From Candidatus Nitrospinota bacterium M3_3B_026 (GTDB lineage: Bacteria > Nitrospinota_A > UBA7883 > JBPRGF01): 64,000 nucleotides of DNA. A program made the position numbers and the translations under genes. The stretch covers positions 192,001 to 256,000 of the forward strand of contig JBPRGF010000023.1 of assembly GCA_051418015.1 (NCBI GenBank), read 5' to 3'. The notes under the pieces were generated by a model. It was not told where the DNA came from and did not search any database. It saw nothing but the letters and a program-made list of their open reading frames with translations. The first letter of the stretch is position 1. Each line of letters starts with the position of its first letter. Below, piece after piece: positions 11,657 through 29,718 of this stretch.

Positions 11657-12802
11657 ATGAATGAACACCACGGACAGAACAACGGCGCCAGGCTGATGGA
11701 CTCGTCCGGTCTGGACGCGCTCATCGCCGCCCTTGTCCGTGAGGGCCGCCGGGTCGTGGGGCCGGTGATCCGGGACGGGGCCATACTCCTCGACGAGATC
11801 AACGGCGTCGAAGACCTGCCGCGCGGCGTGTCGGACGAGCAGGACGCCGCATTCTACCGGCTCCGCGAGACCGGTGGGAATACCCTTTTCGGATATAACG
11901 CAGGCCCCCAACTCTGGAAAAAGTTTCTGTTTCCCCCGAGGCTTACTTTGTGGACGGCGAAGCGGAACGGCCAAGGCTTCGAGATCGAGCCGGACGGGGG
12001 GGAACCTGAGAAACTCGCCCTCCTCGGCGTCCGGCCCTGCGATCTGGCGGCGATAAGGATACAGGACAGGGTCTTCGCGGATGGCGAATTCAAGGACCTC
12101 TCATATGCGACGCGAAGGCGAAATATTTTCGCCATCGCCGTGAACTGCTCCCGCGCCGGGGGGACGTGCTTTTGCGCCTCCATGGGGACGGGACCGAAAG
12201 CTTCCGGTGAGTTCGACATCGCGCTCACGGAGATAGAAGACGAAGTGGGCCATCGTTTCCTGCTTGAAACAGGCTCGGCCGAAGGCGAAAGAGTTCTCGA
12301 AAACACATCCACCACGAAAGCCAGCGAGAACGACCTCATCGCCGCGAAGGCGATTCTCGAAAAGACCTCCCGGAGCATGGGCAGGAGGCTTGAAACGGAG
12401 GGCCTGAAAGAGATTTTGTACGAGTCCGCCGAAGGCAGGATTTGGGAGGACGCGGCTGAAAGATGCCTCGCCTGCGCTAATTGTACGATGGTGTGCCCCA
12501 CCTGTTTTTGCTCCACGGTGGAGGACATGACGGATCTTTCCGGCGATTTCACGAGGCGGGAGCGGCGCTGGGACTCGTGCTTCACGCTGGATTTTTCCTA
12601 CATCCACGGCGGGCCCGTCAGGAGGACGCGCGCGGCCCGGTACCGCCACTGGATAACCCATAAGCTAGCGTCGTGGATGGACCAGTTCGGGACGGCCGGG
12701 TGCACAGGGTGCGGGCGCTGCATCACATGGTGCCCCGCGGCGATAGACATTACGAAAGAGGCCCGGGCGGCGCGGGACGCGGCGGCCCGGGAGAAAGTAT
12801 GA
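11657..12802 (+). CDS. hydB: Group 3b [NiFe] hydrogenase (sulfhydrogenase-type) beta subunit, 4Fe-4S protein
   Basis: GVRPCD, CFC, CLACANCTMVCPTCFC and CTGCGRCITWCP clusters. Confidence 0.88.
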   Translation: MNEHHGQNNGARLMDSSGLDALIAALVREGRRVVGPVIRDGAILLDEINGVEDLPRGVSDEQDAAFYRLRETGGNTLFGYNAGPQLWKKFLFPPRLTLWTAKRNGQGFEIEPDGGEPEKLALLGVRPCDLAAIRIQDRVFADGEFKDLSYATRRRNIFAIAVNCSRAGGTCFCASMGTGPKASGEFDIALTEIEDEVGHRFLLETGSAEGERVLENTSTTKASENDLIAAKAILEKTSRSMGRRLETEGLKEILYESAEGRIWEDAAERCLACANCTMVCPTCFCSTVEDMTDLSGDFTRRERRWDSCFTLDFSYIHGGPVRRTRAARYRHWITHKLASWMDQFGTAGCTGCGRCITWCPAAIDITKEARAARDAAAREKV

Positions 12803-12824
12803 TTTTTCAAGGGGAGACGAGGCG

Positions 12825-13292
12825 ATGAGACCAAAATCCCTTGCGCCGGTACTGGAGGGGCACCCGTTCCTTGAGGGGATGGAGAAAAAGCACATCGACC
12901 TGATCGTGGGATGCGCCAAAAACGTCCGCTTCAACGCCGGGGACTACATCTTCCGCGAAGGCGAAGCGGCGAACGATTTCTACATCATCCGCCGGGGCCT
13001 CGTCTCGGTGGAGCTTTACAGCCCCCGGAAAGGCCCCATCTCCATCCAGACCCTTCGCGACGGCGACATACTCGGCTGGTCGTGGCTCATACCGCCACAC
13101 CAGTGGCGGTTCGACGCGCGGGCGGTGGAGACAACGAGGGCCATAGCGCTGGACGGCGGATGCCTGCGCGGGAAGCTGGAGGACGACCACGGCCTCGGCT
13201 ACCAGCTGCTGAAAAGATTCTCCCGGGTCATGGCAAAGACGCTCGAGGGCACGAGGCTCCAGCTGCTGGACCTTTACGGCGAAGGCGCATGA
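12825..13292 (+). CDS. Stand-alone cyclic-nucleotide-binding domain protein
   Basis: IFREGEAANDFYIIRRGLV...GDILGWSWL...RFDARA cNMP fold; no C-terminal HTH; stop overlaps the next ATG. Confidence 0.85.
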   Translation: MRPKSLAPVLEGHPFLEGMEKKHIDLIVGCAKNVRFNAGDYIFREGEAANDFYIIRRGLVSVELYSPRKGPISIQTLRDGDILGWSWLIPPHQWRFDARAVETTRAIALDGGCLRGKLEDDHGLGYQLLKRFSRVMAKTLEGTRLQLLDLYGEGA

Positions 13293-14143
13293 CGACGCCC
13301 GTTTCCATCAATCCCGGAGCGGACGCGGCGATCCCCGTTCCCTGGATGGTGACGGCCAGGAGGGAGCAGACGCGCGACGTCTTCACCCTCGAGCTTGCCC
13401 CGCCCGCCGGGATGGACGGTCTCCGGTTCGCGCCGGGCCAGTTCAACATGCTGTACCAGTTCGGCGCGGGCGAGGCGCCGATCTCCATCAGCGGCGACCC
13501 AGCGAGGACCGGCGCGCTGGAGCACACGATCCGGGCCGTCGGCGGCGTGACAAGGCTTATGGCCAGCCTTAGGGAAGGAGACGCCATCGGCGTCCGGGGC
13601 CCATACGGGCGTGGATGGCCGATGCCTGAGGCGGAGGGGAAAGACGTCGTCATCGCCGCGGGCGGGATCGGGCTGGCCCCGCTGCGCCCGGCGGTTCTTG
13701 GCATACTGGCGGAGCGGGAAAAATTTGGAAGAGTCGTCCTGTTTTACGGCGCGCGATCCGACGAGGACATAGTCTTCGAAGACGACCTGCGGGAATGGCG
13801 GTCGAGGTTCGACATGGAGATCGAGGTGACCGTCGACCGGGGGTCCGGCGGATGGCGCGGACCCGTCGGCGTCGTCACACAGCTTATTCCGCGGGCCGCC
13901 TTTGATCCCGCGAAAACGCTGGCCATGATATGCGGGCCGGAGGTGATGGCGAAGTTCACCGTGTCGGAGTTTTTAAGGCTCGGCGTTGAGCCGGGGAGGA
14001 TATACGTCTCCATGGAACGGAGCATGAAATGCGGAGTCGGCCTTTGCGGGCATTGCCAGATGGGCCCGCTTTTCGTCTGCAAGGACGGGCCGGTTTTCAC
14101 CTATGACAGCATCCGCCGCCTCATGGCTCTGCGGGAGATATAG
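13289..14143 (+). CDS. hydG: Group 3b hydrogenase gamma subunit (FAD/NAD(P)-binding, 2Fe-2S)
   Basis: PGQFNML, GPYGRGW, GGIGLAP, CGPEVM, MKCGVGLCGHCQ...CKDGPVF; ATG at 13289 (ATGA overlap), so the ORF-track extension from 12911 is spurious. Confidence 0.9.
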   Translation: MTTPVSINPGADAAIPVPWMVTARREQTRDVFTLELAPPAGMDGLRFAPGQFNMLYQFGAGEAPISISGDPARTGALEHTIRAVGGVTRLMASLREGDAIGVRGPYGRGWPMPEAEGKDVVIAAGGIGLAPLRPAVLGILAEREKFGRVVLFYGARSDEDIVFEDDLREWRSRFDMEIEVTVDRGSGGWRGPVGVVTQLIPRAAFDPAKTLAMICGPEVMAKFTVSEFLRLGVEPGRIYVSMERSMKCGVGLCGHCQMGPLFVCKDGPVFTYDSIRRLMALREI

Positions 14144-14908
14144 ATGAAAAAGAAACTGGCCGTCTTCAAGTTCGCCTCATGCGACGGCTGCCAGCTTTCG
14201 CTTCTCAACCTGGAGGACGAGCTTCTGGCCATCGCCGGCGCCATCGACATCGCCTATTTCCCCGAGGCGTCGCGGGAGTACGTCAAGGGGCCTTACGACC
14301 TTTCCCTGGTGGAAGGCTCCATAACCACCTCCCACGACGCGGAGCGGATCCAGAAGGTGAGGGAAAACTCGAAATTCCTCGTGACCATCGGCGCCTGCGC
14401 GACGGCGGGGGGCATCCAGGCGCTCCGGAATTTTCAGGACGTAAACGAGTTCATATCCGTGGTCTATGCCTCGCCGGAGTATATCAGCGCGCTCGGCGAG
14501 TCCACGCCCATCGCCGATCACGTCGCCGTGGACTTCGAGCTTCGCGGCTGCCCCGTGAACAAAGGGCAGCTGCTGGAGGTCGTAACGGCCTTCATCCACG
14601 GGAGAGCGCCAAAAGTCCCGGCCCACAGCGTCTGCCTGGACTGCAAGCTGGCGGGGAACGTCTGCGTGATGGTGGCCCGGAGTGAGCCGTGTCTTGGGCC
14701 CGTGACCCACACAGGCTGCGGCGCGCTCTGCCCGGCGTATCATCGCGGCTGCTACGGCTGTTTCGGGCCGATGGAGACGCCGAACACGCGCTCCATGGGC
14801 GGGCGGCTGAAGGCGCTGGGGCTTTCGGGGGAGGACGTCGTCCGCTCTTTCCGGGGCTTCAACGCCTGGGCGGAGGATTTCAGGGAGGCCGGCGGGGAGG
14901 ATGAGTGA
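14144..14908 (+). CDS. hydD: Group 3b hydrogenase delta (small) subunit
   Basis: [27 protein letters not shown]...[13 protein letters not shown]...CYGCFGP. Confidence 0.92.
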
Positions 14909-16196
14909 AACCAGGAAGATAAGGGTGGACTACCTCGCCCGCGTCGAGGGAGAGGGGGCTATGACATTGAAGATAAAGGACGGCGCCGTCTCCGGCGTGG
15001 CCCTTGAGATATTCGAGCCGCCACGCTTTTTCGAGGCTTTTTTGAGGGGGCGGAGATTCCAGGAAGCGCCGGACATCACCGCCCGGATATGCGGCATATG
15101 CCCCATCGCCTACCAGATGAGCGCCGTCCACGCCATGGAGGACGCGCTGGGGGTCGCCGTCGACGGGGCCACGAGGGATCTTCGCAGGCTGATCTACTGC
15201 GGCGAGTGGATAGAAAGCCACGCCCTCCACGTCTACATGCTCCATGCCCCCGATTTCCTCGGGTACGAAAGCGCCATCCACATGGCAAAAGACCACCCGG
15301 AAATAGTAAAACGCGGTCTTTTTATAAAGAAGGCGGGCAACGCCATCGTCTCGCTTCTTGGCGGCAGGGAGGTTCACCCCATAAACGTCCGGGTGGGGGG
15401 TTTTTACAGGTTGCCGCGAGCTGGCGAGCTTTCCGGCCTGGAGGAGACTCTCAAAAGAGCCAGGGACGAGGCCGTGGAAACCGTGAAATGGGCCGCCGCC
15501 CTCCCCTTCCCCGAGTTTGAGAGGGATTATGTCTTCGTGGCGTTGTCTCATGAAAGAGAGTATCCCTTCAACGAGGGAAGAATCACCTCCACCGGCGGGC
15601 TCGACATCCCTGTCAGCGACTACGAAAAACATTTCGAGGAGGAGCACGCCGCCCATTCCACGGCCCTGCGCTCGAAGATAAAGGGAGGCGGCGCGTACAT
15701 GACCGGGCCGATGGCGCGGTATAGCATCAACTTCGGGAAGCTGCGGCCGATAGCGGTGGAAACGGCGCGGGCGGCGGGCCTTGCGCCGTACATCACGAAC
15801 CCGTACAAGAGCATAGCCGTCCGCGCCGTGGAGATTCTCCACGCCATAGACGAGGCGCTGCGGATCATCGGGGACGGAAAGCTTCCCGAAAAGCCGTTCG
15901 TGGAGGCGGAGCCCTCCGAGTCCACGGGATACGGCGCGACGGAGGCGCCGCGGGGGCTTCTCTACCACAGGTACACGCTTGACGAGAGCGGGCTGATAAC
16001 GAGCGCCAGGATCGTCCCCCCCACGTCGCAGAACCAGCGGATAATCGAGGAGGACCTTTTCAAGGCCGCCTCCGAAAACCTCCGCCTGCCCGACGATGAG
16101 CTTACGTTACGGCTGGAACAGACGATAAGGAACTATGACCCGTGCATATCCTGCTCCACGCATTTTCTGAAGCTGAAAATAGAACATGAACGGTAA
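14901..16196 (+). CDS. hydA: Group 3b [NiFe] hydrogenase alpha (large) subunit
   Basis: ARVEGEG, L1 [16 protein letters not shown]2 DPCISCSTH with short cleavable tail. Confidence 0.95.
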
Positions 16197-16662
16197 GGTC
16201 CTCATAGGCGTCGGGTCCGAGGATCGCGGCGACGACGCCGCAGGGCTCAGGATCGTCCGCGCCCTCAGGGACATGGTTCCCAGGAGCGTCGAGGTGGTGG
16301 AGGCGCCGGGCGAGGGAGCGCGTATAATGGAGGCTTGGCAGGGTTTTCATTTCACGCGGGTGTTCGACGCCGTCTCCTCCGGCGCGCCGCCGGGGACGAT
16401 CGTAAAGCTCGACCCGCGTAAGGACCCCTTTCCCGCGGCCTTTTTTCGCAGTTCCTCCCACACTTTCGGCCTGGCGGAGGCGGTGGAGCTTGCGCGGTCG
16501 CTCGGCGCTCTTCCGCCGTCTCTCATGATCTACGGGGTGGAGGGGAAGGACTACGGGCTGGGGCGGGGGCTCTCGGCGGAGGTGTCCGCCGCCGTGGATG
16601 AGATCGTGGAGATGGTCAAAAAGGAGATGCTCTCTTCGCCATCCATGGGAGATGATGGCTAG
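16186..16662 (+). CDS. Hydrogenase maturation protease
   Basis: [23 protein letters not shown] motifs; directly after the large subunit. Confidence 0.9.
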
Positions 16663-17180
16663 GACTTGGAGAACCGCTCCGACACGGAGTCGAAGCCTAT
16701 GACCACCTTGTCGCGGCTTTCGAGGGTGACCGTCCCTTCGAAAGAGTGGCCGAACGTCTCGTCCCCGTCCCTGGTGTCCTTTATGGCCACTTTTATCGCA
16801 TGCGAGCCGAGGGGCAGGATGAACTTCTCGTAGACATACGTGGCGCTGTCCTGCCTTATGCCCGATGGGACGATCTGCTTGTCCAGGGCGGTTTCGCCGT
16901 CGATCCACACCTTGAGCCGCAGGGGGACGCGTTCCCGGCTGCCGCAAACCCTGTCCGCCCGCTGCATGTGCGGGCGTCTCAGCTTGGCCTCCTTTTTGAA
17001 CTCTTCGAGCTCCTCCTCGTCGCACAGGCTCCTGCGCTCGGTCACTCTCTTGAACGATATGATGACCCCCCCCACGTCGTCGCTGTAATAGCTGTAGGAC
17101 GGCGAGTCGGAAAGAAAATACACCAGCGGCGCGGGGGACAAAAGCAGGATCACGGCCCAGACCGTCAGTCTATCCTTCAT
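16659..17180 (-). CDS. Membrane-anchored hypothetical protein coupled to the cytochrome b fusion
   Basis: N-terminal hydrophobic segment, two Cys, beta-rich soluble domain; ATGA overlap with the upstream gene stop. Confidence 0.7.
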   Translation of the reverse strand: MKDRLTVWAVILLLSPAPLVYFLSDSPSYSYYSDDVGGVIISFKRVTERRSLCDEEELEEFKKEAKLRRPHMQRADRVCGSRERVPLRLKVWIDGETALDKQIVPSGIRQDSATYVYEKFILPLGSHAIKVAIKDTRDGDETFGHSFEGTVTLESRDKVVIGFDSVSERFSKS

Positions 17181-18856
17181 TTCAGCGCGCCCTCCATGTC
17201 GTTGGCGGCGGTCTTTCCGCCGGATGGTTTTCTGACGATCTCCAGGAACTTCTTTATGTCCGCCACCACTTCCTCGTCCTCAAACCTCGACACCAGCATG
17301 ACTTTTATCCGCTCCCCCGCGCTCTCGTCCACTCCGGTGATGTTCGCCGGGTCCGTCGCCTCCTCGATCCGCTCGTTGCCTTCCCTGTAATGGCAGTCCA
17401 GCGGCCTGCAGCCCACGACCACGACCCCCTTCGCGCCGTCCTTGAACGCCGCTCCCACAAGGTCCGGCTCCAGGACGCCGGCGCAGGGGATGACCATCAC
17501 GGCCGCCGCGGGCTCGCCGGCAAGGCTTCTCTCGTCGTCCGACAGGACGTTCGAGAGGGTCATGCTCCGCTCGCACATGAAGCAGAGGATGACCGGCTTC
17601 TCCCCCTCCGCGGGCGCCATAAGGGACTTTATGTCCTCCAGCATCGAATCCCGCGTCATCTCCCCCATGGATATCCCGGACGTGGGGCACGCCGTCACGC
17701 AGAACCCGCATCCCTCGCACCGCGCCGGGAATATTTCCACCTGTGTGTCGTATGGTCTTCCGTCCGTTCTGGGAGTTATGCTCACCGCCTCGAAAGGGCA
17801 GACCGGCTGGCAGAGGTTGCATCCTTTGCATTTTTCAAGGTCTACCAGCGCGAACTGTTTTCGGGCTTTTTTTTTTGCCGCCGCCTTTCGCTTCTCACGC
17901 TCCAGCGCCGGCGCGGGGATGAGCCATGGCAGGGCCGTGAAAAGCGCGAGGGCCGCGGAGCCGGCGATCCACATCGCGCCGGGGGCGACCCTGAAGGCGT
18001 CCATGAAGGGGAACGGGATCAGGTAGAACCAGTCTATCTCCACTCTTCCTAAAAGCTTCGAAAGGTCCGCGGGTCCCATACTGACGGCCGGTTTCACGAG
18101 GGAGAGGCCCAGCAGGCCCGCCAGTATGACCAACGCCACCGGCCGCGGCGGGGAGATCAGGGGCCTGGAAAGGCGCATGTAGTGGATCCAGGCCATTATC
18201 AACAGGAAACAGGGGATCATGAGATGCAGGTAGTTGGTCACGAAAAAGAGCACGCTCGTGACCGTCTCGTTGGTCAGGAACGTCCTGGAGACGGGCTCCA
18301 CGGTGATGGGGAGGGCGTCCAGCAGGCGGGCGAACTCCACGGCCACCATCTTCCCCTTCTCGTCCCACACCAGCACGTAGCCGGATATCCCCTCGAACCA
18401 GACCCAGAACAGGATCACCGAGCCGGAGACCCACGCCACCCATCTAGCGCGCCTGAACCGGTCGGAGAAAAAGACCTGGGCCACGTGCAGAAGGATGGAT
18501 ATGGCCAGCCCGTCGGCGGCGTAGCGGTGCATGGAGCGCATTATGCCGCCGTAATATTTCTGCTCCTTGGTGATGTATTGTACGGACTCGTAGGCCCCTT
18601 CCACGCTCATATCGTAAAAGAGGAACAGGTATGACCCGGTGATGATGAGGATCCAGAACAGGAACAGGGATATGGCCCCGAGGAAGTACATGGGGTTCAG
18701 CCTCGGCGGGAAGATCTTGTTCAGCTGCTCCTGGATGAAGACCAGCGTCGTGTTGCCGGGCCGCAATATCCAGGGGATAAGCTCATTCTGGTACGTCTTG
18801 GAGGCCCTTTTCAGGGACCTTTCGAGTTCTCTCTCCTTGTCCGTGTCTTGTCTCAT
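17177..18856 (-). CDS. Cytochrome b domain + 2x[4Fe-4S] ferredoxin + MvhD/FlpD-like [2Fe-2S] fusion protein
   Basis: RSMHRYAAD..LLHVAQVF and YLHL..WIHY heme His pairs; CKGCNLCQPVCP and CEGCGFCVTACP; FMC..IPCAG..GCRPLDCHYREGN. Confidence 0.88.
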   Translation of the reverse strand: MRQDTDKERELERSLKRASKTYQNELIPWILRPGNTTLVFIQEQLNKIFPPRLNPMYFLGAISLFLFWILIITGSYLFLFYDMSVEGAYESVQYITKEQKYYGGIMRSMHRYAADGLAISILLHVAQVFFSDRFRRARWVAWVSGSVILFWVWFEGISGYVLVWDEKGKMVAVEFARLLDALPITVEPVSRTFLTNETVTSVLFFVTNYLHLMIPCFLLIMAWIHYMRLSRPLISPPRPVALVILAGLLGLSLVKPAVSMGPADLSKLLGRVEIDWFYLIPFPFMDAFRVAPGAMWIAGSAALALFTALPWLIPAPALEREKRKAAAKKKARKQFALVDLEKCKGCNLCQPVCPFEAVSITPRTDGRPYDTQVEIFPARCEGCGFCVTACPTSGISMGEMTRDSMLEDIKSLMAPAEGEKPVILCFMCERSMTLSNVLSDDERSLAGEPAAAVMVIPCAGVLEPDLVGAAFKDGAKGVVVVGCRPLDCHYREGNERIEEATDPANITGVDESAGERIKVMLVSRFEDEEVVADIKKFLEIVRKPSGGKTAANDMEGALK

Positions 18857-18905: not shown

Positions 18906-19721
18906 TTAGGAGGCTTGCGCGCCCCTCGCGCGGCCTGAGTGGCGGGAGAAAAGATGGGCTATCCTGCCCCGCAACAGGTAAACGACAGTGGCCACTATCA
19001 GGATGTACTGCAAAATGACTGCGAAGACAAACGTGTAATCGACCTTGTAGGTCTTGGTGACGGGATCGTAGTTCGAGCAGTAGATCAACAGCTTTGACAG
19101 GGCGCTGGTCATCCTCCCCTGCGCCGTGCGGCCGGCGAGGACATCCCGGACGGCGTTCTCCACTTCCGCGGGATCGTAGTCCACTCCGTAGAAATGCCTG
19201 GCGACGGAGCCGTCGGGCGCGACGAGGGTGAGGCGGTTCAGGTGATCGAGGCTGTCCGCCTTCTTCTCGTAGGAAAAGCCGAGGTCCGACACCATCATCC
19301 CCAGCGTCTCGTCGTCGGTGGTCGTGAATATCCATCTTTCGAAATTGTCCGCGAAAGCCGCGCCGTACTCCCTGAGCCTGGCGGGGTTGTCGTTATGGTT
19401 GTCGATGCTTATCGACAGCGTCATCAGCTTCCCGGCGACGGCCGGGTCGATGGCCGCCAACATGTTTTTAAGGCTCTCGTTTATGAGCCAGCAAGGGCCG
19501 TGGCAGTCCACGTACATGAAGCTTACGAGGACGGGCCTGCCTTTCAGGCTGTGGAACGGGAGGTAGTCCCCGTCCTGCGTAATAAGCCTGTAGTTTCGCA
19601 CCTTCCGCCCCACCGCCAGCTCCGAGCGCTCCAGGACCGAAGCCCCAGGCGCGGCCGGCGCCGTGGCGGAAAGCGGCGAAACGATCAGAACAACCGCTAA
19701 TACCAGCGCACGTTTCAGCAT
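18906..19721 (-). CDS. SCO1/SenC family copper chaperone
   Basis: Signal peptide, CHGPC (CxxxC), SISID, conserved His (LDHLNR), C-terminal YCSNYDP plus TM. Confidence 0.88.
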   Translation of the reverse strand: MLKRALVLAVVLIVSPLSATAPAAPGASVLERSELAVGRKVRNYRLITQDGDYLPFHSLKGRPVLVSFMYVDCHGPCWLINESLKNMLAAIDPAVAGKLMTLSISIDNHNDNPARLREYGAAFADNFERWIFTTTDDETLGMMVSDLGFSYEKKADSLDHLNRLTLVAPDGSVARHFYGVDYDPAEVENAVRDVLAGRTAQGRMTSALSKLLIYCSNYDPVTKTYKVDYTFVFAVILQYILIVATVVYLLRGRIAHLFSRHSGRARGAQAS

Positions 19722-19811: not shown

Positions 19812-19940
19812 TCAACCCACCTTCCATACTCCTACAAGATACTTCCAGTTGAGGAAGTAGAAGGCCACGAACGTAATGAAAAATATGATGATGATGGCGA
19901 ACGAGCCTTTCGGCCTGTGTTCGTCTCTCTCTTCAACCAT
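19812..19940 (-). CDS. 42-aa single-TM subunit, resembling subunit IIa of B-family heme-copper oxidases (not in ORF track)
   Basis: Hand translation MVEERDEHRPKGSFAIIIIFFITFVAFYFLNWKYLVGVWKVG*; SD GGAGGTG just upstream; immediately after subunit I. Confidence 0.75.
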   Translation of the reverse strand: MVEERDEHRPKGSFAIIIIFFITFVAFYFLNWKYLVGVWKVG

Positions 19941-19970: not shown

Positions 19971-21491
19971 TCAAGCCTCGATCTTTTTGCCGACTAGCAG
20001 CGTCCCGACGGCCACCAACACATACATGGCGCCGCCCAGCACCGCTATGACGCCGCCGATGCCCACGATCGCCATCGAAAGGTCCACGATGGGCCCGAAG
20101 TTGACGGCGAAGGGCGAATCCGCCCCGGTCATGTCCCAGCTTCTCCTGGGCACGCCGAACACCCCGGCGAACATCATGAAGATGCACAGCAGGTACATCC
20201 CTATGCCATAGACGTAGGGCTGGGCCTTGGCTATGCCCTTGAAGGCCACCTCGCGCCTGAATATGAGAGGCAGCACGTAGTAGGTCACGCCCATGAAGGC
20301 CATCGTCGTGCCCGCCACCACTGTGGCGTGGAAATGGCCGGGGACGCGGATGGTGTTGTGGACGACTATGTTCAGCTGCTCCGTGCCGTATATGACGCCG
20401 GAGATGCCTCCCAGGAAGCCGAAGCCCACCATCGAGAACCACAGCGAGGACCATCCCGGATCGCCCCACGGGGCCTTCTTGAGCCACTCGAAAAGACCGG
20501 CGGTGTAGCCCTTCTTCCTGAGCGCCACCTCCGTCGCCGCCGGCACGGAGAAGGCGTGGATCATCGAGGCCAGCACAGCAAGGTGCATGAAGTACCCCGT
20601 GTTCCACGACTTGTGCGCCGCCGAGAGGCCCGGGTCGACCAGCAGGTGGTGCTCCGAGGCTATCAGGATGAACAAGATGTAAAGGCCGAAAGCGATGCGG
20701 CTGACCTTCTCGTTGATCGGCGTGGAGCCGACCGTCAATGTCCCCAGAAGGTACCAGACAGCCACCATGGCGCAGACGTTTATCTGCTGCGACGAGTGGC
20801 CGAAGCCCCAGAACAGCAGCCTGTAGACCTCCGCGTCCATCATGGGGATGAGCCCCAGGGCCCACAGCCACGTGGGGATAAAAGTGGCCGCTCCATGCGC
20901 CAGGGTCAGTATGGCGATGATCGCCGCCGCCATGGCCCCGAAGGTCACAAGCGGGACGGAGCCTTCGTAGGTCTTGTCCCTCTTGGCCACCGCCAGCGTG
21001 GCGAAAAAGACCACGCAACCCACGATGGCGCCCACGGCGAAGAGTATCACGCCGAGGTAGTACCAATGGTCGGCCTTCAAGGGGATGTACGAGGTGAACA
21101 TCACGTCCGCCTTGCCGAGCAGTATCTCCACCGCCGCTATTGCGGCTCCGCCCAGCATCAGCAGATACGCCAGCCACCCGGCCCATGGCGCGGCCAGCCT
21201 GGTGTTCAGCAACACCGCGGACGCGAAGTAGAGCACAGCTATCTCGAAGAAGATGATCCACGCCACCAGCATGGCGATCCCGTGCAGGGTCAGCAGCCGG
21301 TAGAACCACTCGTCATTGAGTATGTGCACGGCCTGCCACCTGGTGAGGACCATGAACAGCCCGATTATCCCCCCCACGAGGAGGAACACGATCGAAGTCA
21401 CCGCGTTGACCTGTATCAGGGTCTGCGCGGGAAGGTGTATCTTGAAACCGGTTGTCGGACAGGTTCTGAACCGTCCTTCTTGCTCCGCCAT
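19971..21491 (-). CDS. Heme-copper oxidoreductase subunit I, eNOR-type nitric oxide reductase (B-family derived)
   Basis: Polytopic; LTLHG, FWGFGHSSQQINV (Gln at the His+4 Tyr position), SEHHLL, PGHFH, GVPRR; divergent from nirS. Confidence 0.82.
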   Translation of the reverse strand: MAEQEGRFRTCPTTGFKIHLPAQTLIQVNAVTSIVFLLVGGIIGLFMVLTRWQAVHILNDEWFYRLLTLHGIAMLVAWIIFFEIAVLYFASAVLLNTRLAAPWAGWLAYLLMLGGAAIAAVEILLGKADVMFTSYIPLKADHWYYLGVILFAVGAIVGCVVFFATLAVAKRDKTYEGSVPLVTFGAMAAAIIAILTLAHGAATFIPTWLWALGLIPMMDAEVYRLLFWGFGHSSQQINVCAMVAVWYLLGTLTVGSTPINEKVSRIAFGLYILFILIASEHHLLVDPGLSAAHKSWNTGYFMHLAVLASMIHAFSVPAATEVALRKKGYTAGLFEWLKKAPWGDPGWSSLWFSMVGFGFLGGISGVIYGTEQLNIVVHNTIRVPGHFHATVVAGTTMAFMGVTYYVLPLIFRREVAFKGIAKAQPYVYGIGMYLLCIFMMFAGVFGVPRRSWDMTGADSPFAVNFGPIVDLSMAIVGIGGVIAVLGGAMYVLVAVGTLLVGKKIEA

Positions 21492-21504: not shown

Positions 21505-22032
21505 CTATTCAACGTATATCTTGCCGAACATCAGGTGATGCCCGATGCCGCAGAACTCGTTGCAGATTATGGTGTACTCCCCGGCTTTCGTCGGCGTGAT
21601 GGTCAGCACCGAGTCCCACCCGGGGACGGCCTGGAAGTTCATGTTCAAAGGATAGATCGAAAAACCGTGGTTCACGTCCACGGAGGACAGATGCAGCCTG
21701 TAGGTCTGGCCCGCCTTGAGCTTCAGGATGGGGTCCCACGACCACTGGGCGGCTCTCATGAAGGCGTCGCTGTTGGGAGGAGGCTCCACGACCGGGATTC
21801 CTTCCTCCTCGCCCACCTTGTACTTCTCTATGAACTTATCGGTCAGGTTGTAGAAATCGTCGGTGGTGAGCTTGTAGTACTCCTGCGGCGGGTTCTGCTC
21901 CCCGATTATATGCCAGGCCGGCATAATAAGTGTTATCAATATGCACCATATCAGCGCGATGGTGATCCATATCTTCTCCTCCGCATGGAGAGGACTGCGC
22001 CACCAGTGCCGCGCGGGCGAATGAATGCTCAT
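21505..22032 (-). CDS. Heme-copper oxidoreductase subunit II (CuA)
   Basis: Single TM; DVNHGF and CNEFCGIGHHLM CuA ligands. Confidence 0.92.
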   Translation of the reverse strand: MSIHSPARHWWRSPLHAEEKIWITIALIWCILITLIMPAWHIIGEQNPPQEYYKLTTDDFYNLTDKFIEKYKVGEEEGIPVVEPPPNSDAFMRAAQWSWDPILKLKAGQTYRLHLSSVDVNHGFSIYPLNMNFQAVPGWDSVLTITPTKAGEYTIICNEFCGIGHHLMFGKIYVE

Positions 22033-22739: not shown

Positions 22740-24344
22740 ATGAAAAGATATTTCTTTCTGTTCGCGCTGAGTCTTGCGTTAATCACCACGTTTTACACGC
22801 CACAAGCCCTGGCGGAGCCCGAAGCGCCACCGTTGAACCAGGATGAATGGCACATCGCCAAGAGCATCTACTTCAACAGGTGCGCCGGCTGCCACGGCAC
22901 CCTGAGGAAAGGCGCCACGGGGCCCAACCTCCTTCCGGAGAAGACCCTCGAATTCGGCACGGAGACCATCAGGAGCTTCATTATGGAGGGGACCGAGGGG
23001 GGCATGCCGGCCTTCGGCAGGGGCGGAATCCTGACGCCGGAGGAGGTCGACATCATGGCCAGGTTCGTCCAGCATGACCCCGTGGCCCCGCCGGAGATGT
23101 CGCTGGCGGACATGATGGAAAGCTGGAACCTTGTCGTGCCGCCGAACAAGAGGCCGAAAAAGCCGGCCCACAACAGGAACTGGCAGAACTTCTTCGGCGT
23201 GGTCCTGCGCGACGCTGGCCAGGTGGCCATCATCGACGGCGACACCAAGGAGAAGGTATCCACCGTCAACACAGGCTTCGCGGTGCACATCCTGCGCGCC
23301 TCGGCGTCGGGCCGGTATATCTTCTCAATCGGCCGCGACGGCAAGGCGACCATGATCGACACCTGGATGAAAAAGCCGTCCATCGTGGCCGAGGTCAAGA
23401 CCTGCTCCGAGGCCCGCTCCATCGACACCAGCAAATACGAAGGCTACGAGGACAAGTACGCCGTGGTGGGCTGCTACTGGCCGCCGCACTTCGTCGTCCT
23501 GAACGGCGCCACGCTGGAGCCGATGAAAATCGTCAGCACCAGAAGCTACACCTACGACTCGTATGAGTACCATCCCGAGCCCCGCGTGGCGGCGATCGTC
23601 TCCTCGCACTACAGCCCGGAGTGGGTCCTGAACGTCAAGGAGACGGGCTACGTCTGGCTGGTCGATTACTCCGATATCGAGAACATGAAGATCACCCAGA
23701 TCGAGTCTGAGCGCTTCCTTCACGACGGGGGCTGGGACGCCAAGCACCGCTACTTCATGGCGGCGGCGAACATGCGCGACACCATGGTTGTCATAGACAC
23801 CAAGACCAGGAAGAAGGTGGCGCAGTTCAAGGTCGGCACCAAGCCGCACCCGGGCCGCGGCGGAAACTGGGTCGACCCGAAATACGGCCCCGTCTCGGGC
23901 ACGGTGCACCTCGGCGAGGGACTGCTCTCGGTGTGGGGGTCCGACCCTGAGGGTCACCCGGAACACGCCTGGAAGGTCGTGAGAAGCATCGAGCTTCCCG
24001 GCGGCGCCGGCAGCCTGTTCATGAAGACCCACCCCAAGAGCAAACACATGTGGATGGACTTCACCCTGAACCCGGACCCGAAGAACCATCGCAGCGTATG
24101 CGTGATGGACATCAACAAGCCTAACACCAAGGACCTGAACTGTTTCCAGGTGACCGACCACGGACGCGTCGTGCACATGGAGTACAACAAGAAAGGGGAC
24201 GAGGTGTGGCTGAGCGTCTGGGACAAGGAGGGCGAGCTGGTCATCTACGACGACAGGACCCTGAAGGTCAAGAAGAGGATCAAGGGTCTTCGCACTCCCA
24301 CGGGCAAGTTCAACGTGTACAACACGCAGCACGACATCTACTGA
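22740..24344 (+). CDS. nirS: Cytochrome cd1 nitrite reductase
   Basis: Signal peptide, CAGCHGTLRKGATG, GFAVHI, YHPEPRVAAI, FLHDGGWD, PHPGRG, C-terminal TPTGKFNVYNT. Confidence 0.96.
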   Translation: MKRYFFLFALSLALITTFYTPQALAEPEAPPLNQDEWHIAKSIYFNRCAGCHGTLRKGATGPNLLPEKTLEFGTETIRSFIMEGTEGGMPAFGRGGILTPEEVDIMARFVQHDPVAPPEMSLADMMESWNLVVPPNKRPKKPAHNRNWQNFFGVVLRDAGQVAIIDGDTKEKVSTVNTGFAVHILRASASGRYIFSIGRDGKATMIDTWMKKPSIVAEVKTCSEARSIDTSKYEGYEDKYAVVGCYWPPHFVVLNGATLEPMKIVSTRSYTYDSYEYHPEPRVAAIVSSHYSPEWVLNVKETGYVWLVDYSDIENMKITQIESERFLHDGGWDAKHRYFMAAANMRDTMVVIDTKTRKKVAQFKVGTKPHPGRGGNWVDPKYGPVSGTVHLGEGLLSVWGSDPEGHPEHAWKVVRSIELPGGAGSLFMKTHPKSKHMWMDFTLNPDPKNHRSVCVMDINKPNTKDLNCFQVTDHGRVVHMEYNKKGDEVWLSVWDKEGELVIYDDRTLKVKKRIKGLRTPTGKFNVYNTQHDIY

Positions 24345-24370
24345 TGGCAAGCGCGCGGTAACACCGTTGA

Positions 24371-24407
24371 GGGCGCCCCGGCGCGGCGGCAAGCCCCCGG
24401 GGCGCCC
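24371..24407 (+). other. GC-rich stem-loop after nirS (mRNA stabiliser or weak terminator)
   Basis: GGGCGCCCCGG / CCGGGGCGCCC 11-bp stem with no U-tract. Confidence 0.5.
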
Positions 24408-24427
24408 CGAATTAAAAGAGGCGCATT

Positions 24428-26143
24428 ATGACCTCGCCATCCATGACGCGGATCGCGGCTCTCATCCTTGCGCCGGTGTTTATCTCCGGCCCCGGATCGG
24501 CCTTCGCCGAAACTTCCGCGAAGAACCTCTATGGGGAGCATTGCGCGAGCTGCCATCACCCGAAAAGGCTGGGGCTCACGGCCCCTCCCTTGATACCGGG
24601 TCTTTTTTCAAGAAGCGCCAAGGGCCGCCTGCCCCAAATAATCCGCGACGGGCTTCCGGCCACGCGGATGCCGGCTTTCGGCGGCGAGCTTTCTGATGAA
24701 CAGATAAAACTTCTGGCGGAACTCATACAAGAACCGGCGAAGGAGTTGGACTGGACTTTTGAGGACATACGGTCTAGCAAGATTGACATTGACGAGCCTG
24801 GAAAAGTTTTAAGAGCCGACATCGAGAATATAACGCTGGTCATGGAGCGCGGGACGCAGAGCCTCGTCGTTCTGGACGGCGCGGATTTCAGCGAGCTCGG
24901 CAGGTTCCACGTGGGCGCCGTCCACGGCGGGCCGAAGTTTTCGTATTCCCTGGATCGTGTGTACGCCCTTGCCAGGGACGGGATACTGACAAGCTATAAT
25001 CTGAGAGCCCTTTCCGCCGAGACCAGGCTCAAGGCGGGGATAAACTCCCGCTCCGTCGCCGTATCAAGCGGCGACAAAACGGTGGCCGTGGCCAATTACC
25101 TTCCGTCCAACGTCGTCCTTTTCGACAAAGACCTGGAGCCCGTCGGCGAGATACCACTGCCCGGAAAGGCGGGGGGGTTCTACTCGCTGCCGTCCCTGAA
25201 AAGCTTCGCCCTGTCGTTCAGGGAGATTCCGGAACTCTGGATAATCGGCGAGAGCCCGCCTTTCGAGATCGAAAAACGAAAGCTGCCCGAGGCTTTCCAG
25301 GATTTTTCGGTCAGTCCCGTCAAGCCTTACATAATCGGGACGAAACGGGGCGGCGATCATATGTACATCTACGACTACATGGAGGACAGGATACTCAAAA
25401 AGATCCCCACCAGCGGCCTGCCGCACCTGGCCTCGGCCGCGTTCTACATACACAAGGGCGAGCTTTTCGCCGGGGTCAACCACATAAAAAAGCCAGCGGC
25501 CACGATCATATCCCTCGACCGGCTCGACAAGGTGGCCGAGATACCCCTTCCCGGCGCGGGCTTTTTCGTCCGGACGCATCATGCCACGCCGTACCTGTGG
25601 ATAGATACCGAGACGGAGCGGATCGCCCTCGTGAACAAGGACGACTTCTCCGATATCCGCTACCTGACGCCCCACGAGGGGCGCAAGGCGATGCACGTGG
25701 AATTCACCAAGGAGGGCGCCCGCGCCCTGGTCACCATCCCGGGCAGGGGCGGCGAGGTGGTCATATACGACGCGAAGACCCTGGAAAAGATCAACGCCAT
25801 CCCCTTCGAACGGCCCGTCGGCAAGTACAACGCCACGAACAAGACGTACCCGGGCAGATCGCTCGCGGCGCGGAAGGCGGATGGGGCCAGCGCGGGCAAA
25901 CAGGTCTTCGACAAATACTGCATGGGGTGCCACCACCAGGTCTACGAGGCGTTCGGGCCATCCTTCACCCGGATAGCCAGGGAGAGGGGCGCGGCAAGGA
26001 TAAAGTTTCACATCCTGTCGCCCGAGGCCAGCGCAAAGACCCTGGGGTACAAGAGAAACTCCATGCCCAGGATAAAACTTTCGCCGGAGCAGCTGGAGGC
26101 GATAGTCAGATACATAAAAAGCTTCGGCCAGACGGGGGGATAA
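24428..26143 (+). CDS. nirN: NirN-like heme d1 biosynthesis protein with an extra C-terminal c-type cytochrome domain
   Basis: N-terminal CASCH..RLG..PPL, d1 beta-propeller (VHGGPKFS, PHL, GFFVRTH, HVEFT, PVGKYN), second CMGCH at the C-terminus. Confidence 0.8.
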   Translation: MTSPSMTRIAALILAPVFISGPGSAFAETSAKNLYGEHCASCHHPKRLGLTAPPLIPGLFSRSAKGRLPQIIRDGLPATRMPAFGGELSDEQIKLLAELIQEPAKELDWTFEDIRSSKIDIDEPGKVLRADIENITLVMERGTQSLVVLDGADFSELGRFHVGAVHGGPKFSYSLDRVYALARDGILTSYNLRALSAETRLKAGINSRSVAVSSGDKTVAVANYLPSNVVLFDKDLEPVGEIPLPGKAGGFYSLPSLKSFALSFREIPELWIIGESPPFEIEKRKLPEAFQDFSVSPVKPYIIGTKRGGDHMYIYDYMEDRILKKIPTSGLPHLASAAFYIHKGELFAGVNHIKKPAATIISLDRLDKVAEIPLPGAGFFVRTHHATPYLWIDTETERIALVNKDDFSDIRYLTPHEGRKAMHVEFTKEGARALVTIPGRGGEVVIYDAKTLEKINAIPFERPVGKYNATNKTYPGRSLAARKADGASAGKQVFDKYCMGCHHQVYEAFGPSFTRIARERGAARIKFHILSPEASAKTLGYKRNSMPRIKLSPEQLEAIVRYIKSFGQTGG

Positions 26144-26144
26144 G

Positions 26145-28614: not shown

Positions 28615-29718
28615 ATGAGCACGATCCTTATCGTGGACGACAACGAGGACAGCATTGTCCTTTACGAGTCCATCATCTCGTCGCGCGGCTACAGGGTCAT
28701 CACCGCCGGCGACGGCGAGGAAGCCCTGGAGAAGCTTAAAGCCGCCGAAGGGGGCGTGGACCTCGTCCTCTCCGACATCATGATGCCGAAAATAGACGGG
28801 CTGGGCCTTGCCAGGAGGATAAAGAGCGACCCCGACGCGCGCCACATCCCGGTGATCCTGCTCACCGCCGGGAAACGTGAGCGCGAGGACATGGCGGGCG
28901 GACTGGACGTCGGCGCGGACGACTATCTCGTAAAGCCCGTGGACACCGTGGAGCTGATGGCGAGGCTGCGCTCACACCTGAGGGTGAAAAAGCTCCAGGA
29001 CGAGCTGACGCTGGCGAACCGCCGCCTGGCGGAGATGAACGACAACCTGGAGCAGTTGGTCGAGGAGCGGACGGTCGAGATCATGCTGACCAGGAACGCG
29101 GCCATATTCGGCCTCGCCAAGATCGCCGAGCGCCGCGACCCGGAGACCGGCGGGCATCTTGAGAGGATACGCGAATACACCAGGGCGCTGGCCATCCAGA
29201 TGCGGAAGGCGCCGCGTTTCAGGGACGTGATCGACGACGACTTCATCGTCAATATCTACCAGTCCAGCCCCCTGCACGACGTGGGCAAGGTGGGCATCCC
29301 GGACAGCATATTGCTCAAGCCCGGCAAGCTGACGCCCGAGGAGTTCGAGATCATGAAAACCCATTCAACGATCGGCGGGGACTCCCTCGCGGCGGCGGAG
29401 CGCTCCTTCGCGGGTGACAGCTTTCTTTCCATGGGAAGAGACATCGCCTACTACCACCATGAACGGTGGAACGGGAAGGGATACCCGAAAGGTTTGGAGG
29501 GGGATGAAATCCCTCTCGCCGCCCGGATAATGGCCCTGGCCGACGTCTACGACGCCCTGGTCAGCAAACGGGTCTACAAGGAGGCCATGTCCCACGAAGA
29601 GGCCAGGAAAATCATCCTGGGCGAAGAGGGGGAGCATTTCGACCCGGACATCGTGGCGGCTTTCCGGGAGATAGACCAGTTGTTCCTGGAGACAAGAAGA
29701 AAACACTCGGACGAGTGA
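28615..29718 (+). CDS. Response regulator with HD-GYP cyclic-di-GMP phosphodiesterase domain
   Basis: REC domain (VDD, SDIMMP, KP), ETGGHLERI, LHDVGK, HHERWNGKGYP. Confidence 0.93.
   Translation: MSTILIVDDNEDSIVLYESIISSRGYRVITAGDGEEALEKLKAAEGGVDLVLSDIMMPKIDGLGLARRIKSDPDARHIPVILLTAGKREREDMAGGLDVGADDYLVKPVDTVELMARLRSHLRVKKLQDELTLANRRLAEMNDNLEQLVEERTVEIMLTRNAAIFGLAKIAERRDPETGGHLERIREYTRALAIQMRKAPRFRDVIDDDFIVNIYQSSPLHDVGKVGIPDSILLKPGKLTPEEFEIMKTHSTIGGDSLAAAERSFAGDSFLSMGRDIAYYHHERWNGKGYPKGLEGDEIPLAARIMALADVYDALVSKRVYKEAMSHEEARKIILGEEGEHFDPDIVAAFREIDQLFLETRRKHSDE

Follow-up and report, generated by a model that had tools for sequence, protein, structure and literature searches.

NosR/NirI, CcoG/FixG, MsrQ-Fre, di-haem succinate:quinone reductase (SQR) and NarGHI all link cytoplasmic Fe-S or flavin centres, via a membrane domain, to a redox site on the periplasmic side that serves a respiratory enzyme. 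To the two-gene module described here they are functional analogues without homology, built on other membrane folds and other Fe-S families; in CcoG/FixG, the cupric reductase that assists cbb3 assembly, the order of transmembrane (TM) helices, cytoplasmic 2x[4Fe-4S] domain, TM helix and periplasmic Ig-like domain runs parallel to that of the module, but Fer4_5/Fer4_18 and FixG_C are not assigned to it, other Fer4 families being found on its fusion protein and no Pfam family on the partner of that protein. Homology leads to two other systems: for the membrane part to cytochrome b6 plus subunit IV and the cytochrome b of bc1 and b6f complexes (6rqf_I, 8smr), and for the cytoplasmic part to the two-domain unit of MvhD and the C-terminal ferredoxin domain of HdrA in Mvh-Hdr (5odc), which is fused in HdrA2 and has the same order in the fusion protein.

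The enzyme beside which the module occurs, eNOR, shows two subunits on SDS-PAGE as purified from R. marinus, and its NO reduction was assayed with TMPD/ascorbate, as described in the sections covered here; the module is thus not needed for catalysis in vitro. The eNOR literature, in the portions covered, names only such artificial donors (TMPD/ascorbate) for characterised eNOR, and no physiological donor or dedicated partner was found there; the covered parts of the main and supplementary text of Murali et al. (2024) do not mention the fusion and use the word 'operon' once, on CtaA. The architecture itself is already in print, in an appendix table of PMC8756737 and in section 6.5.2 of a preprint on Ferrigenium straubiae (bioRxiv 10.64898/2026.01.22.701106), both represented here by extracts. 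In the latter, the eNOR operon comprises eNOR II, eNOR I, haem O synthase, sco1 and cytochrome b plus Fe-S genes, with all four proteins in the proteome, and the cytochrome b genes are termed 'rather unusual'; compared by description, the operon logic is alike, but Ferrigenium has two 'bc1 chain C-like' genes, whereas the locus described here has the Fe-S/FlpD type only. The sNOR cluster of AOB is given as 'norSY-senC-orf1', with orf1 merely named in the part of the source covered, and the cytochrome b 'subfamily H' of Dibrova et al. (PMC5600118), likened here by description from an extract, consists of large multi-domain proteins whose function is 'yet to be established'. A literature search found no biochemical characterisation of the fusion architecture, in agreement with an earlier reading of this DNA made from the sequence only (the sequence-only reading), which knew of none.

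In the 64,000-nucleotide stretch of DNA analysed here (the window), a fusion gene and a 173-aa partner gene form an uncharacterised module beside the genes of a CuA-type eNOR (Table 1). The module adjoins every eNOR-type NO reductase gene examined, and thus probably supplies or services eNOR; its identity and its linkage to eNOR are held to be close to certain.

Table 1. Features of the eNOR cluster and of the adjacent operon, in positions of the window.
Feature	Position	Strand	Description
eNOR subunit II	21505..22032	minus	one TM helix and cupredoxin domain, complete CuA site; Pfam COX2
eNOR subunit I	19971..21491	minus	haem-copper superfamily, Gln for cross-linked Tyr; Pfam COX1, E 4.6e-63
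42-aa single-helix ORF after subunit I	19812..19940	minus	unlisted; conserved in phylum relatives
SCO1/SenC copper chaperone	18906..19721	minus	Pfam SCO1-SenC, E 7e-13; extra C-terminal TM helix
Fusion gene	17177..18856	minus	open ORF, 559 aa
Cytochrome b core	17912..18718	minus	residues 47-315, helices A-F, four haem His, IDWFY in Qo place
Basic linker after helix F	17852..17911	minus	residues 316-335
2x[4Fe-4S] ferredoxin domain	17672..17851	minus	residues 336-395, Pfam Fer4/Fer4_7
MvhD/FlpD-like [2Fe-2S] domain	17231..17590	minus	residues 423-542, Pfam FlpD
173-aa partner	16659..17180	minus	TM helix and periplasmic beta-sandwich, conserved Cys pair
Group-3 [NiFe] hydrogenase operon	11657..16662	plus	ends 4 nt inside partner gene stop, convergent

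The NO reductase is assigned by motifs as an eNOR in the sense of Murali et al. (2024), with Gln at His+4 and the CuA site kept. The subunit I motifs GHxSQQ (H-x3-Q), HH and HxH occur in all of 63 sequences, and Table A4 of PMC8756737 gives Q as the active-site residue of eNOR; in subunit II, the CuA motif CxExCx3Hx2M and the upstream His are present in 59/59 aligned homologues. The 42-aa ORF shows 47-65% identity in phylum relatives, and in several proteobacterial loci its match lies inside the 3' end of a longer subunit I ORF; its product is probably a small eNOR subunit. The SCO protein has TM helices at 5-23 and 232-250. A promoter and terminator scan of the operon was uninformative, yielding neither a sigma-70-like site nor a convincing terminator within it.

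The fusion gene is far beyond chance, its protein having homologues down to E 1e-183. Pfam places Cytochrome_B at residues 47-229 (PF00033, E 2.8e-24, above cut-off), two Fer4 motifs within residues 338-393 (PF00037/PF12838) and FlpD at residues 423-542 (PF02662, E 2.4e-16, profile positions 1-120 of 123); PF02665 and PF01292 (NarI/HdrE/Ni-hydrogenase-type cytochrome b) are absent among the 17 Pfam matches with E up to 0.01. The haem ligands H110, H124, H211 and H225 are invariant in 24/24 aligned homologues, and the pairs H110/H124 and H211/H225, one His of each pair on helix B and one on helix D as in the bc1/b6f pattern for haems bL and bH, are kept in 12/12 sequences across subfamilies. 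Conservation in the 24 homologues extends to the Fe-S domains: in the ferredoxin domain, C343/346/349/353-P354 and C380/386/390 are invariant and C383 is kept at 90% or more, the second CxxCxxCxxxCP motif being C380-C390-P391; in the MvhD domain, C428, C458 and C483 are invariant and C488 is kept at 90% or more. The last three of these align with Cys of solved MvhD (9sw2_D, E 1.2e-9; 5odc_D, E 2.5e-9), with the whole chains of which the FlpD-like domain aligns along its full length. In the PEWY place, the family profile puts 'eidwfyl' on 'KPEWYFL' of the genome's canonical subunit IV (E 2.4e-6), the gene of which adjoins a Rieske/cyt b6 pair; the Asp is invariant in 12/12 sequences from three subfamilies, the Trp is near-invariant, and the Pro is absent. 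A PDB search with helices E-F as a single sequence gave no match. Behind the sixth helix of the core sits the basic linker REKRKAAAKKKARK. The sequence-only reading had described a cytochrome b core with four haem His, a PEWY motif altered to IDWFY, a basic linker into two CxxCxxCxxxCP clusters and an MvhD/FlpD-like domain with four Cys; all of this is borne out by the Pfam matches, the profile alignment onto subunit IV and the conserved residues.

With bc1/b6f cytochrome b, the fusion thus shares the four-His two-haem bundle of helices A-F, the cd-loop motif 'GYxLxWD' and, in the PEWY place, an acidic residue with Trp after it. Cytochrome b6 chains are its best matches in sequence (E 7e-36), and bc1 cytochrome b chains are the best fold matches of its AF2 model (pLDDT 84.1, pTM 0.84; confidence lowest at 326-328). 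It differs from them in the lost PEWY Pro, in a cytoplasmic Fe-S/MvhD insert of 230 residues behind helix F, in the lack of a Rieske or c-type cytochrome partner in the cluster, and in its partner enzyme, which is eNOR. Residues 333-543, in turn, match positions 569-770 of HdrA2 (E 5e-32, with NCBIfam scores far below curated cut-offs), and the ferredoxin domain resembles the HdrA C-terminal ferredoxin domain 5odc_A; however, the unit has neither an HdrA flavoprotein nor HdrBC nor an Mvh hydrogenase attached to it or beside it, no HdrA-like gene occurs in the cluster, and the unit is joined to a membrane cytochrome b. In NCBIfam, neither the fusion nor the partner nor SCO scores above a curated cut-off, and the Protein Atlas holds only unnamed 'hypothetical protein' clusters for the module, which is without a named family or assigned function.

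The partner, overlooked in the sequence-only reading, is the other half of the module, to which it contributes helix number seven and a beta-sandwich in the periplasm: the two genes overlap by 4 nt, partner start on fusion stop, the partner is present in 71/79 related loci, and in 96 of the best 150 family representatives (at 50% identity) it is fused in-frame to the C-terminus of the fusion. Neither Pfam nor NCBIfam matches it. Its AF2 model has a pLDDT of 90.6, and two Cys and one His of the periplasmic domain are kept at 90% or more; Foldseek finds only weak generic beta-sandwich matches (best E 8.7e-4, TMq 0.34), the best Z of a wide VIA search (7.6) lies within background, and no Rieske, cupredoxin or PCuAC-like chain is among the fold matches listed.

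The Fe-S domains are placed on the cytoplasmic side by homology (helices E-F align with canonical subunit IV), by the positive-inside rule (the K/R-rich stretches are the N-terminus, the B-C loop and the post-F linker), and by the fused forms, in which a TM helix lies between FlpD and the beta-sandwich; a periplasmic location, which the sequence-only reading had named as a refutation of its proposal, is thereby contradicted. The partner helix would take the place of helix G. Directly evident and strongly indicated features add up to the following build. The module has seven helices; its core, of the cytochrome b6/subunit-IV type, holds haems bH and bL and forms, on the periplasmic side, a quinone-type pocket whose PEWY place is taken by an invariant Asp. 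The cytoplasmic insert carries a pair of [4Fe-4S] clusters and, more distally, a [2Fe-2S] cluster of the MvhD type, and the last helix runs into a beta-sandwich that lies in the periplasm and has no cofactor.

The link to eNOR holds throughout the genomes sampled, in which the module is tied obligately, at the genomic level, to CuA-type eNOR. Among related loci with at least 6.5 kb upstream, eNOR subunit I lies upstream on the same strand in 47/47. In the organism's own phylum, eNOR is found in 23/33 genomes and the cytochrome b gene in 23/23 of these, both on the same contig within 3 kb in 21/23; in a class sample around an alphaproteobacterial MAG, both genes occur in the same 27 of 401 genomes and neither in the other 374; and in an order sample around a Gallionella MAG (401 genomes), the small partner is present in 49/49 eNOR genomes, a profile search of these 401 returning only matches that are both strong and eNOR-linked. 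A SCO gene is present in 72/79 related loci, and the linkage to eNOR and SCO proposed in the sequence-only reading thus stands. A two-gene, multi-cofactor membrane module therefore travels with eNOR in every eNOR genome sampled, and models of N2O production and energy yield in eNOR organisms are incomplete without it, whatever its role.

These observations are best explained if the fusion gene and the partner form one eNOR-specific transmembrane redox module. A cytoplasmic donor, perhaps ferredoxin or a partner linked to NAD(P)H, would deliver electrons to the MvhD cluster. The Fe-S chain would carry them to haem bH, and from there they would traverse the membrane, by way of haem bL, as far as the periplasmic pocket. 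Beyond it they would reach eNOR, where they would either serve turnover at CuA or hold the metal centres in a reduced, active state, a role that may be likened to those ascribed to NosR for N2O reductase and to MsrQ/Fre for MsrP. Such a path would free NO removal from dependence on the bc1/cytochrome c chain. By established redox potentials, outward flow is downhill, and a sister fusion described below carries a BenC-type module, the characterised relatives of which oxidise NAD(P)H. Nevertheless, the outward direction, with eNOR as the acceptor, is put forward tentatively, at somewhat less than an even chance. Counting against it are the NO reduction by two-subunit eNOR in vitro, the position of the fusion after the assembly genes CtaB and SCO, as for an assembly factor, the existence of a paralogue not linked to eNOR and of a locus without eNOR in the 4.1 kb upstream, and the pocket itself: the invariant acidic residue and the canonical cd/ef loops argue, as far as sequence can tell, for real quinone chemistry, of which a simple wire to CuA has no need.

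The same pocket is the starting point for a rival explanation, by which the module works, in a supercomplex with eNOR, as a quinol oxidase of the Qo type that does without Rieske, NO reduction driving reverse electron flow. Quinol would be oxidised at the periplasmic pocket, one electron passing to CuA in place of Rieske/c1, the other via bL and bH to the Fe-S chain and on to ferredoxin or NAD(P)+, or else re-reducing quinone as in a Q-cycle. Consistent with this are the conserved Asp in the PEWY place and the cd-loop motif, the complete CuA motif in 59/59, the strict linkage to eNOR, and the genomic surroundings: the three Rieske matches of the genome all lie outside the window, and a motif scan found no bc-type Rieske within 10 kb of the fusion in the 79 related loci, the two Rieske-domain matches inspected there, which lie 2-9 kb beyond the fusion gene, being an oxygenase and a CMD fusion. 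The window also holds no cytochrome c gene between COX2 and the 173-aa gene, and clustered neighbours of the related loci yield one small cytochrome c family, in 5 loci only. The lack of a nearby Rieske gene had been reported by the sequence-only reading, and is seen here both for the window and for its relatives; the module is a natural case of a bc-type cytochrome b without a Rieske protein, and as such bears on the evolution of Q-cycle machinery. There are precedents of a kind: the covered part of the Ferrigenium preprint proposes a supercomplex that would couple NO reduction to NAD+ reduction via the NADH-binding cytochrome b of its eNOR operon, and comparable proposals for anammox Rieske/cytochrome b complexes are summarised in Dibrova 2017 (PMC5600118, in extract). 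However, moving an electron from haem bH up to clusters of the ferredoxin type, with the membrane potential opposing it, would be energetically strained; CuA is held on subunit I and may not reach the Qo pocket; the BenC-like sister module is of an NAD(P)H-oxidising class; and the family also occurs in many alphaproteobacterial lineages (27/401 sampled). This quinol-oxidising reading is therefore rather unlikely, and its most specific form, a fixed supercomplex with the CuA domain standing in for Rieske at a Qo-type site and NO reduction, by its very high potential, driving quinol-based bifurcation to reduce ferredoxin or NAD(P)+, is decidedly so. Were it true, it would provide nitrite-, iron- and sulfur-oxidising autotrophs with a respiratory route to strong reductant, and denitrification with a new mode of energy conservation. 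An uncontrolled complex prediction of the cytochrome b part (1-330), the 173-aa partner and eNOR subunit II gave a score of 0.00 for subunit II, which speaks neither for nor against contact.

The place of the fusion gene directly after SCO, and in relatives after CtaB and often with CtaA nearby, raises a further alternative, namely that the module is an assembly or maturation factor only: a transmembrane reductase that readies copper, iron or haem a for eNOR, with no catalytic electron flow. Strict co-occurrence would be typical of such factors, two-subunit eNOR reduces NO in vitro (in the covered part of the R. marinus work), the genome's own FixG has an analogous layout, and the two Cys and one His of the partner domain are conserved. 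Against it, hhalign finds no relation between the partner family and this FixG (probability 0.2%), a bc-type core with two haems and an intact quinone-type pocket is more than metal reduction would call for, and the proteins were found in the proteome alongside eNOR, according to the extract of the Ferrigenium preprint. The sequence-only reading had argued for maturation from the lack of ctaA/ctaB in the operon, but this argument is not supported: CtaA is encoded elsewhere in the genome, so that no maturation step is evidently missing, and in relatives CtaB (33 loci) and CtaA (17 loci) occur in the same clusters as the fusion. An assembly role alone is accordingly judged improbable. The idea of the module as a substitute for a missing haem A synthase is discounted, given CtaA in this genome and in the 17 loci.

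The related loci have a denitrification or NO-stress context (nirS in 22, hemerythrin in 27, NnrS in 16 and NosR-like genes in 10 of the 79), which speaks for the eNOR-specific redox module; a hemerythrin gene lies behind the module in the 27. Alternatively, the module might be an autonomous quinone-linked redox loop that serves a cytoplasmic partner related to NO, the hemerythrin protein for example, without physical contact to eNOR, working either like NarGHI (quinol outside to a cytoplasmic acceptor) or like di-haem SQR (a cytoplasmic donor to quinone outside); the succession of Fe-S chain, proximal haem, distal haem and outer quinone site is as in those enzymes, and the paralogue occurs in a non-eNOR context. 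The one-to-one co-occurrence with eNOR and the position inside the eNOR operon would be left unexplained, however, and the window has no hemerythrin gene beside the module; an autonomous loop is therefore very unlikely.

As for the donor, the sequence-only reading had suggested perhaps the neighbouring hydrogenase, or ferredoxin; the hydrogenase would dock on the MvhD domain and send H2-derived electrons to eNOR. MvhD is the hydrogenase-facing connector in Mvh-Hdr complexes, and the two operons meet closely, as the table shows, but they are convergent and the genes are thus not co-transcribed; the Pfam set of the hydrogenase (Fer4_22, FNR-like, small and large subunits, HycI) is read as not of the Mvh type; and homologues of the small subunit occur in 0/79 related loci, those of the large subunit in 1/79, weakly. 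The suggestion is not sustained by these counts, and a hydrogenase donor is exceedingly improbable.

At least 10 of the 79 loci have a sister fusion with a BenC/NAD(P)H-flavin-reductase-type module (E 3.6e-55), and the Gallionella-type loci L042, L045, L048 and L076, laid out like the Ferrigenium operon, have a cytochrome b-Fer2-FAD-NAD gene together with a cytochrome b-Fe-S-FlpD gene; the Fe-S/FlpD type is universal among the eNOR clusters sampled, and the FNR type is a lineage-specific extra. Elsewhere in the genome there is a paralogue of the same architecture, not linked to eNOR, which the earlier reading had overlooked, and locus L015 has TPR genes, without SCO or eNOR, across the 4.1 kb upstream. 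The Pelomicrobium isolate of locus L079 is an example of a cultured carrier of the module; as cultured carriers exist, its role is open to testing.

The fusion gene and the partner gene that follows it form a real, conserved and widespread module to which no function has been assigned. The description that fits it best is of a Rieske-less cytochrome b that carries a ferredoxin-MvhD insert on the cytoplasmic side and a β-sandwich on the periplasmic side, is dedicated to the CuA-type nitric oxide reductase (eNOR) and belongs among the cytochrome bc/membrane-anchored oxidoreductases. What the module is, and that it is linked to eNOR, is firm; its mechanism we infer. The four haem His, the two [4Fe-4S] motifs and the four-Cys MvhD/FlpD-like domain named in the sequence-only reading all hold in Pfam and in an alignment of 24 homologues (30-51% identity): H110, H124, H211 and H225 are invariant, as are seven of the eight ferredoxin Cys (the eighth, C383, is conserved at at least 90%) and C428, C458 and C483 of the MvhD domain (C488 at at least 90%).

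Features of the eNOR operon, the module and the flanking clusters in the window
Feature	Position	Strand	Remark
CuA subunit II	21505-22032	-	first in operon order
Haem-copper subunit I	19971-21491	-	second in operon order
Single-helix (single-TM) ORF	19812-19940	-	42 aa; in the 249-nt gap from subunit I to SCO
SCO	18906-19721	-	followed by fusion gene, then partner gene
Fusion gene	17177-18856	-	open ORF, 559 residues
Cytochrome b/b6 domain	residues 47-229		Pfam E 2.8e-24, above curated cut-off
Two [4Fe-4S] motifs	within residues 338-393		Pfam, above curated cut-off
FlpD/MvhD domain	residues 423-542		Pfam E 2.4e-16, above curated cut-off
Partner gene	16659-17180	-	173-aa ORF; start 4 nt ahead of fusion-gene stop
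nirS cluster	22740-28464	+	upstream, divergent
HD-GYP-type response regulator	28615-29718		after nirS cluster
Group-3 [NiFe] hydrogenase operon	11657-16662	+	downstream, convergent; five genes

In the alignment of the MvhD-like region, C458, C483 and C488 (the GCxxxDCHY motif) fall over Cys of solved MvhD chains; the ferredoxin-plus-MvhD unit as a whole resembles the C-terminus of HdrA2 (NCBIfam, E 5e-32, a score far below that model's cut-off). At the place of the PEWY motif, D275, W276 and F277 are each conserved at at least 90% among the 24 homologues, and the family profile aligns 'eidwfyl' on 'KPEWYFL' in the canonical subunit IV of this genome (E 2.4e-6), which adjoins cytochrome b6 and Rieske genes; PEWY is therefore altered to IDWFY, as had been read from the sequence. 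Six helices are seen by hydropathy. Homology to cytochrome b6 and subunit IV puts the segments enriched in Lys/Arg (the N-terminus, the B-C loop and the linker that follows helix F) on the cytoplasmic side, and with them the Fe-S domains, for which a periplasmic position had been named as the finding that would count against the first reading. The AF2 model is confident (pLDDT 84.1, pTM 0.84), and over 280-330 columns it matches bc1 cytochrome b chains best.

Relatives were collected by a pattern scan with one genome per species, which shows them in at least 629 genomes; the locus counts refer to the best 79 loci, which come from Nitrospinota, Nitrospirota, 'delta', alpha and beta/gamma proteobacterial MAGs and from one isolate. 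All 47 loci with at least 6.5 kb of upstream sequence have a homologue of subunit I (51-83% identical) upstream on the same strand, and 15 of the 32 with less show one. Subunit I carries GHxSQQ (Gln at His+4) with the HH and HxH ligands in 63/63 aligned sequences, a Gln that Table A4 of PMC8756737 gives as the mark of eNOR, and subunit II the full CuA motif in 59/59. SCO clusters with the fusion gene in 72 of the 79 loci, which with subunit I bears out the predicted tie to the reductase; UbiA-type haem O synthase (33), hemerythrin (27), nirS (22), CtaA (17), NnrS (16), NosR-like (10) and a Crp-type regulator (10) occur in fewer. A Rieske-motif scan of all ORFs of the 79 loci finds no bc-type Rieske, in keeping with the earlier claim; the two genuine Rieske domains lie 2-9 kb past the fusion gene, one in an oxygenase and the other in a CMD fusion. 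The neighbouring hydrogenase, by contrast, had been proposed as electron donor and is hardly credible as such: its adjacency is not kept in relatives (small subunit 0/79, large subunit 1/79). That the module serves assembly only is unlikely; it would fit the position after SCO and CtaB and a layout resembling that of CcoG/FixG, to which, however, there is no homology.

The linkage is equally tight when counted from the eNOR side, where no statistic is attached because related genomes are not independent. In the window's phylum, eNOR subunit I is present in 23 of 33 genomes, and the module's cytochrome b gene, fused or split, in all 23, within 3 kb of eNOR on the same contig in 21. The ten genomes lacking subunit I include G011, in which a 4.9-kb contig begins with SCO, fusion and partner, G006, whose fragment of cytochrome b lies at the edge of a contig, and G022, with the paralogue only. 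Among 401 genomes drawn evenly from the class around an alphaproteobacterial carrier, 27 have subunit I and the same 27 the fusion (26 on the same contig), the other 374 having neither; among 401 of the order around a Gallionella carrier, 49 have eNOR, and the small partner occurs in those 49 and in one more, at a contig start. Every exception is explained by a contig break. A free-standing quinone loop, which would leave this co-occurrence unexplained, is accordingly a poor candidate, less probable still than a pure assembly role. Two tandem fusion-gene copies in a phylum relative (G007:C57:7727-11562), one with an in-frame TGA, and a subunit I that is split and carries two TAG codons beside a retained partner gene in the order sample (G782:C2:38340-39837) may be decaying copies.

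The partner gene is the other half of the module. Its homologues adjoin the fusion gene in 71 of the 79 loci, and in the remaining 8 the match stops no more than 252 nt short of the end of the contig; in 96 of the 150 best-scoring 50%-identity family representatives the domain is fused at the C-terminus, giving proteins of 600-750 aa, and the split arrangement of the window is therefore the minority form. A hydrophobic helix between the MvhD domain and the C-terminal domain of the fused proteins places the latter in the periplasm. The partner protein has no Pfam or NCBIfam match; its AF2 model (pLDDT 90.6) consists of a TM helix, a short helix and a β-sandwich, for which structure searches return generic β-sandwich matches only. 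Conservation of at least 90% is seen for two Cys and one His, and no cofactor motif can be recognised. In one locus (L125, on G011:C26) the gene directly after the partner gene encodes a type-II NADH dehydrogenase (NDH-2), a single case that could hint at a donor.

The cytochrome b-Fe-S-FlpD architecture is not exclusive to eNOR, because the same genome encodes a paralogue of 598 aa (G000:C1:34797-36593; L089:4798-6594) with cytochrome b, two [4Fe-4S] motifs, FlpD, a seventh helix and the C-terminal domain, which adjoins a Ser/Thr kinase gene and has no eNOR link. Of five loci of relatives examined, three (L120, L121, L124) again have the paralogue after the kinase, and two have a CcmH-like gene (L121, L124) and a zinc-ribbon gene after the paralogue. 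In a Thermodesulfobacteriota MAG (L015:1-4140) the 4.1 kb upstream of the fusion gene hold TPR genes, not SCO or eNOR, and the downstream sequence is missing. Cytochrome b and Fe-S/FlpD also occur as separate genes. At least 10 of the 79 loci, of beta-proteobacterial type, have an extra cytochrome b fused to plant-type [2Fe-2S], FAD and NAD domains (L042:5705-7642; like genes in L010, L025, L033, L045, L048, L062, L076 and L079), a module matching the BenC model below cut-off (E 3.6e-55). Some genomes with this FNR type hold a second copy of the small β-sandwich partner about 2 kb away, and the two cytochrome b proteins of one operon might form a heterodimer. Across eNOR type, paralogue and FNR type, 12/12 sequences keep R107, R111, D165, the four His and the Asp that stands in for PEWY's acidic position, so that the periplasmic pocket is a core feature of all three.

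The anatomy of the module is thus a chain from an MvhD-type [2Fe-2S] cluster through two [4Fe-4S] clusters, haem bH and haem bL to a quinone-type pocket on the outer side, which the cofactor-less β-sandwich of the partner caps or flanks, with neither Rieske nor c-type exit. A cytoplasmic chain of three clusters implies that electrons are exchanged with a partner in the cytoplasm, and the strict link to eNOR, which takes up electrons only at the periplasmic CuA, implies that eNOR is what the outer end serves. We tentatively rank first an outward flow, in which a cytoplasmic donor would feed eNOR for turnover or for reductive maintenance, because it runs downhill, because the sister FNR-type module belongs to a reductase class that oxidises NAD(P)H, and because NosR, MsrQ/Fre and NOX-type systems are precedents. 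Oxidation of quinol at the outer pocket, with one electron passing to CuA and the other inward, has the conserved pocket as its main argument but is energetically strained, and we hold it possible though doubtful. On the other side of the balance, eNOR purified from R. marinus shows two subunits on SDS-PAGE and its NO reduction was assayed with TMPD/ascorbate (bioRxiv 10.1101/2021.10.15.464467), so that the module is dispensable for catalysis in vitro.

The literature on eNOR/sNOR/gNOR, ba3-a1, cytochrome b-MvhD/FlpD and eNOR operons yielded no biochemical study of the fusion protein, in agreement with the sequence-only reading. In the parts of that literature covered, two publications already show the architecture: a single Chloroflexi protein, with cytochrome b6, DMSOR-beta-like and FlpD parts and near nirS/eNOR, appears without comment in an appendix table of PMC8756737, and section 6.5.2 of a Ferrigenium preprint (bioRxiv 10.64898/2026.01.22.701106) describes two such genes in the eNOR operon, suggests that the NADH-binding one acts as a quinol:NAD+ oxidoreductase, and finds all four proteins in a proteome. 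The cytochrome b 'subfamily H' of PMC5600118, large proteins without known function, may correspond to this family. The fusion gene is not discussed in the passages of Murali et al. 2024 (PMC11214002) that were covered, and 'cytochrome b', 'operon' and 'ferredoxin' are absent from the supplementary text as far as it was covered.

Within the operon, the 42-aa ORF is 47-65% identical among phylum relatives, and in several proteobacterial loci a matching stretch lies inside the 3' end of a subunit I ORF that is longer. The 42-aa ORF probably encodes a small subunit of eNOR that has gone unannotated. The SCO protein has hydrophobic helices at the N-terminus and at the C-terminus (residues 232-250), the second of which suggests that it is anchored twice in the membrane. 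The nirS cluster, of cd1 nitrite reductase type, comprises nirS, a second cd1-like protein with two cytochrome c domains, a radical-SAM/SPASM protein and a further cd1-fold protein. The hydrogenase operon encodes a Fer4_22 subunit, an FNR-like subunit, the small and large subunits and a HycI protease, and its last gene overlaps the stop of the partner gene by 4 nt.
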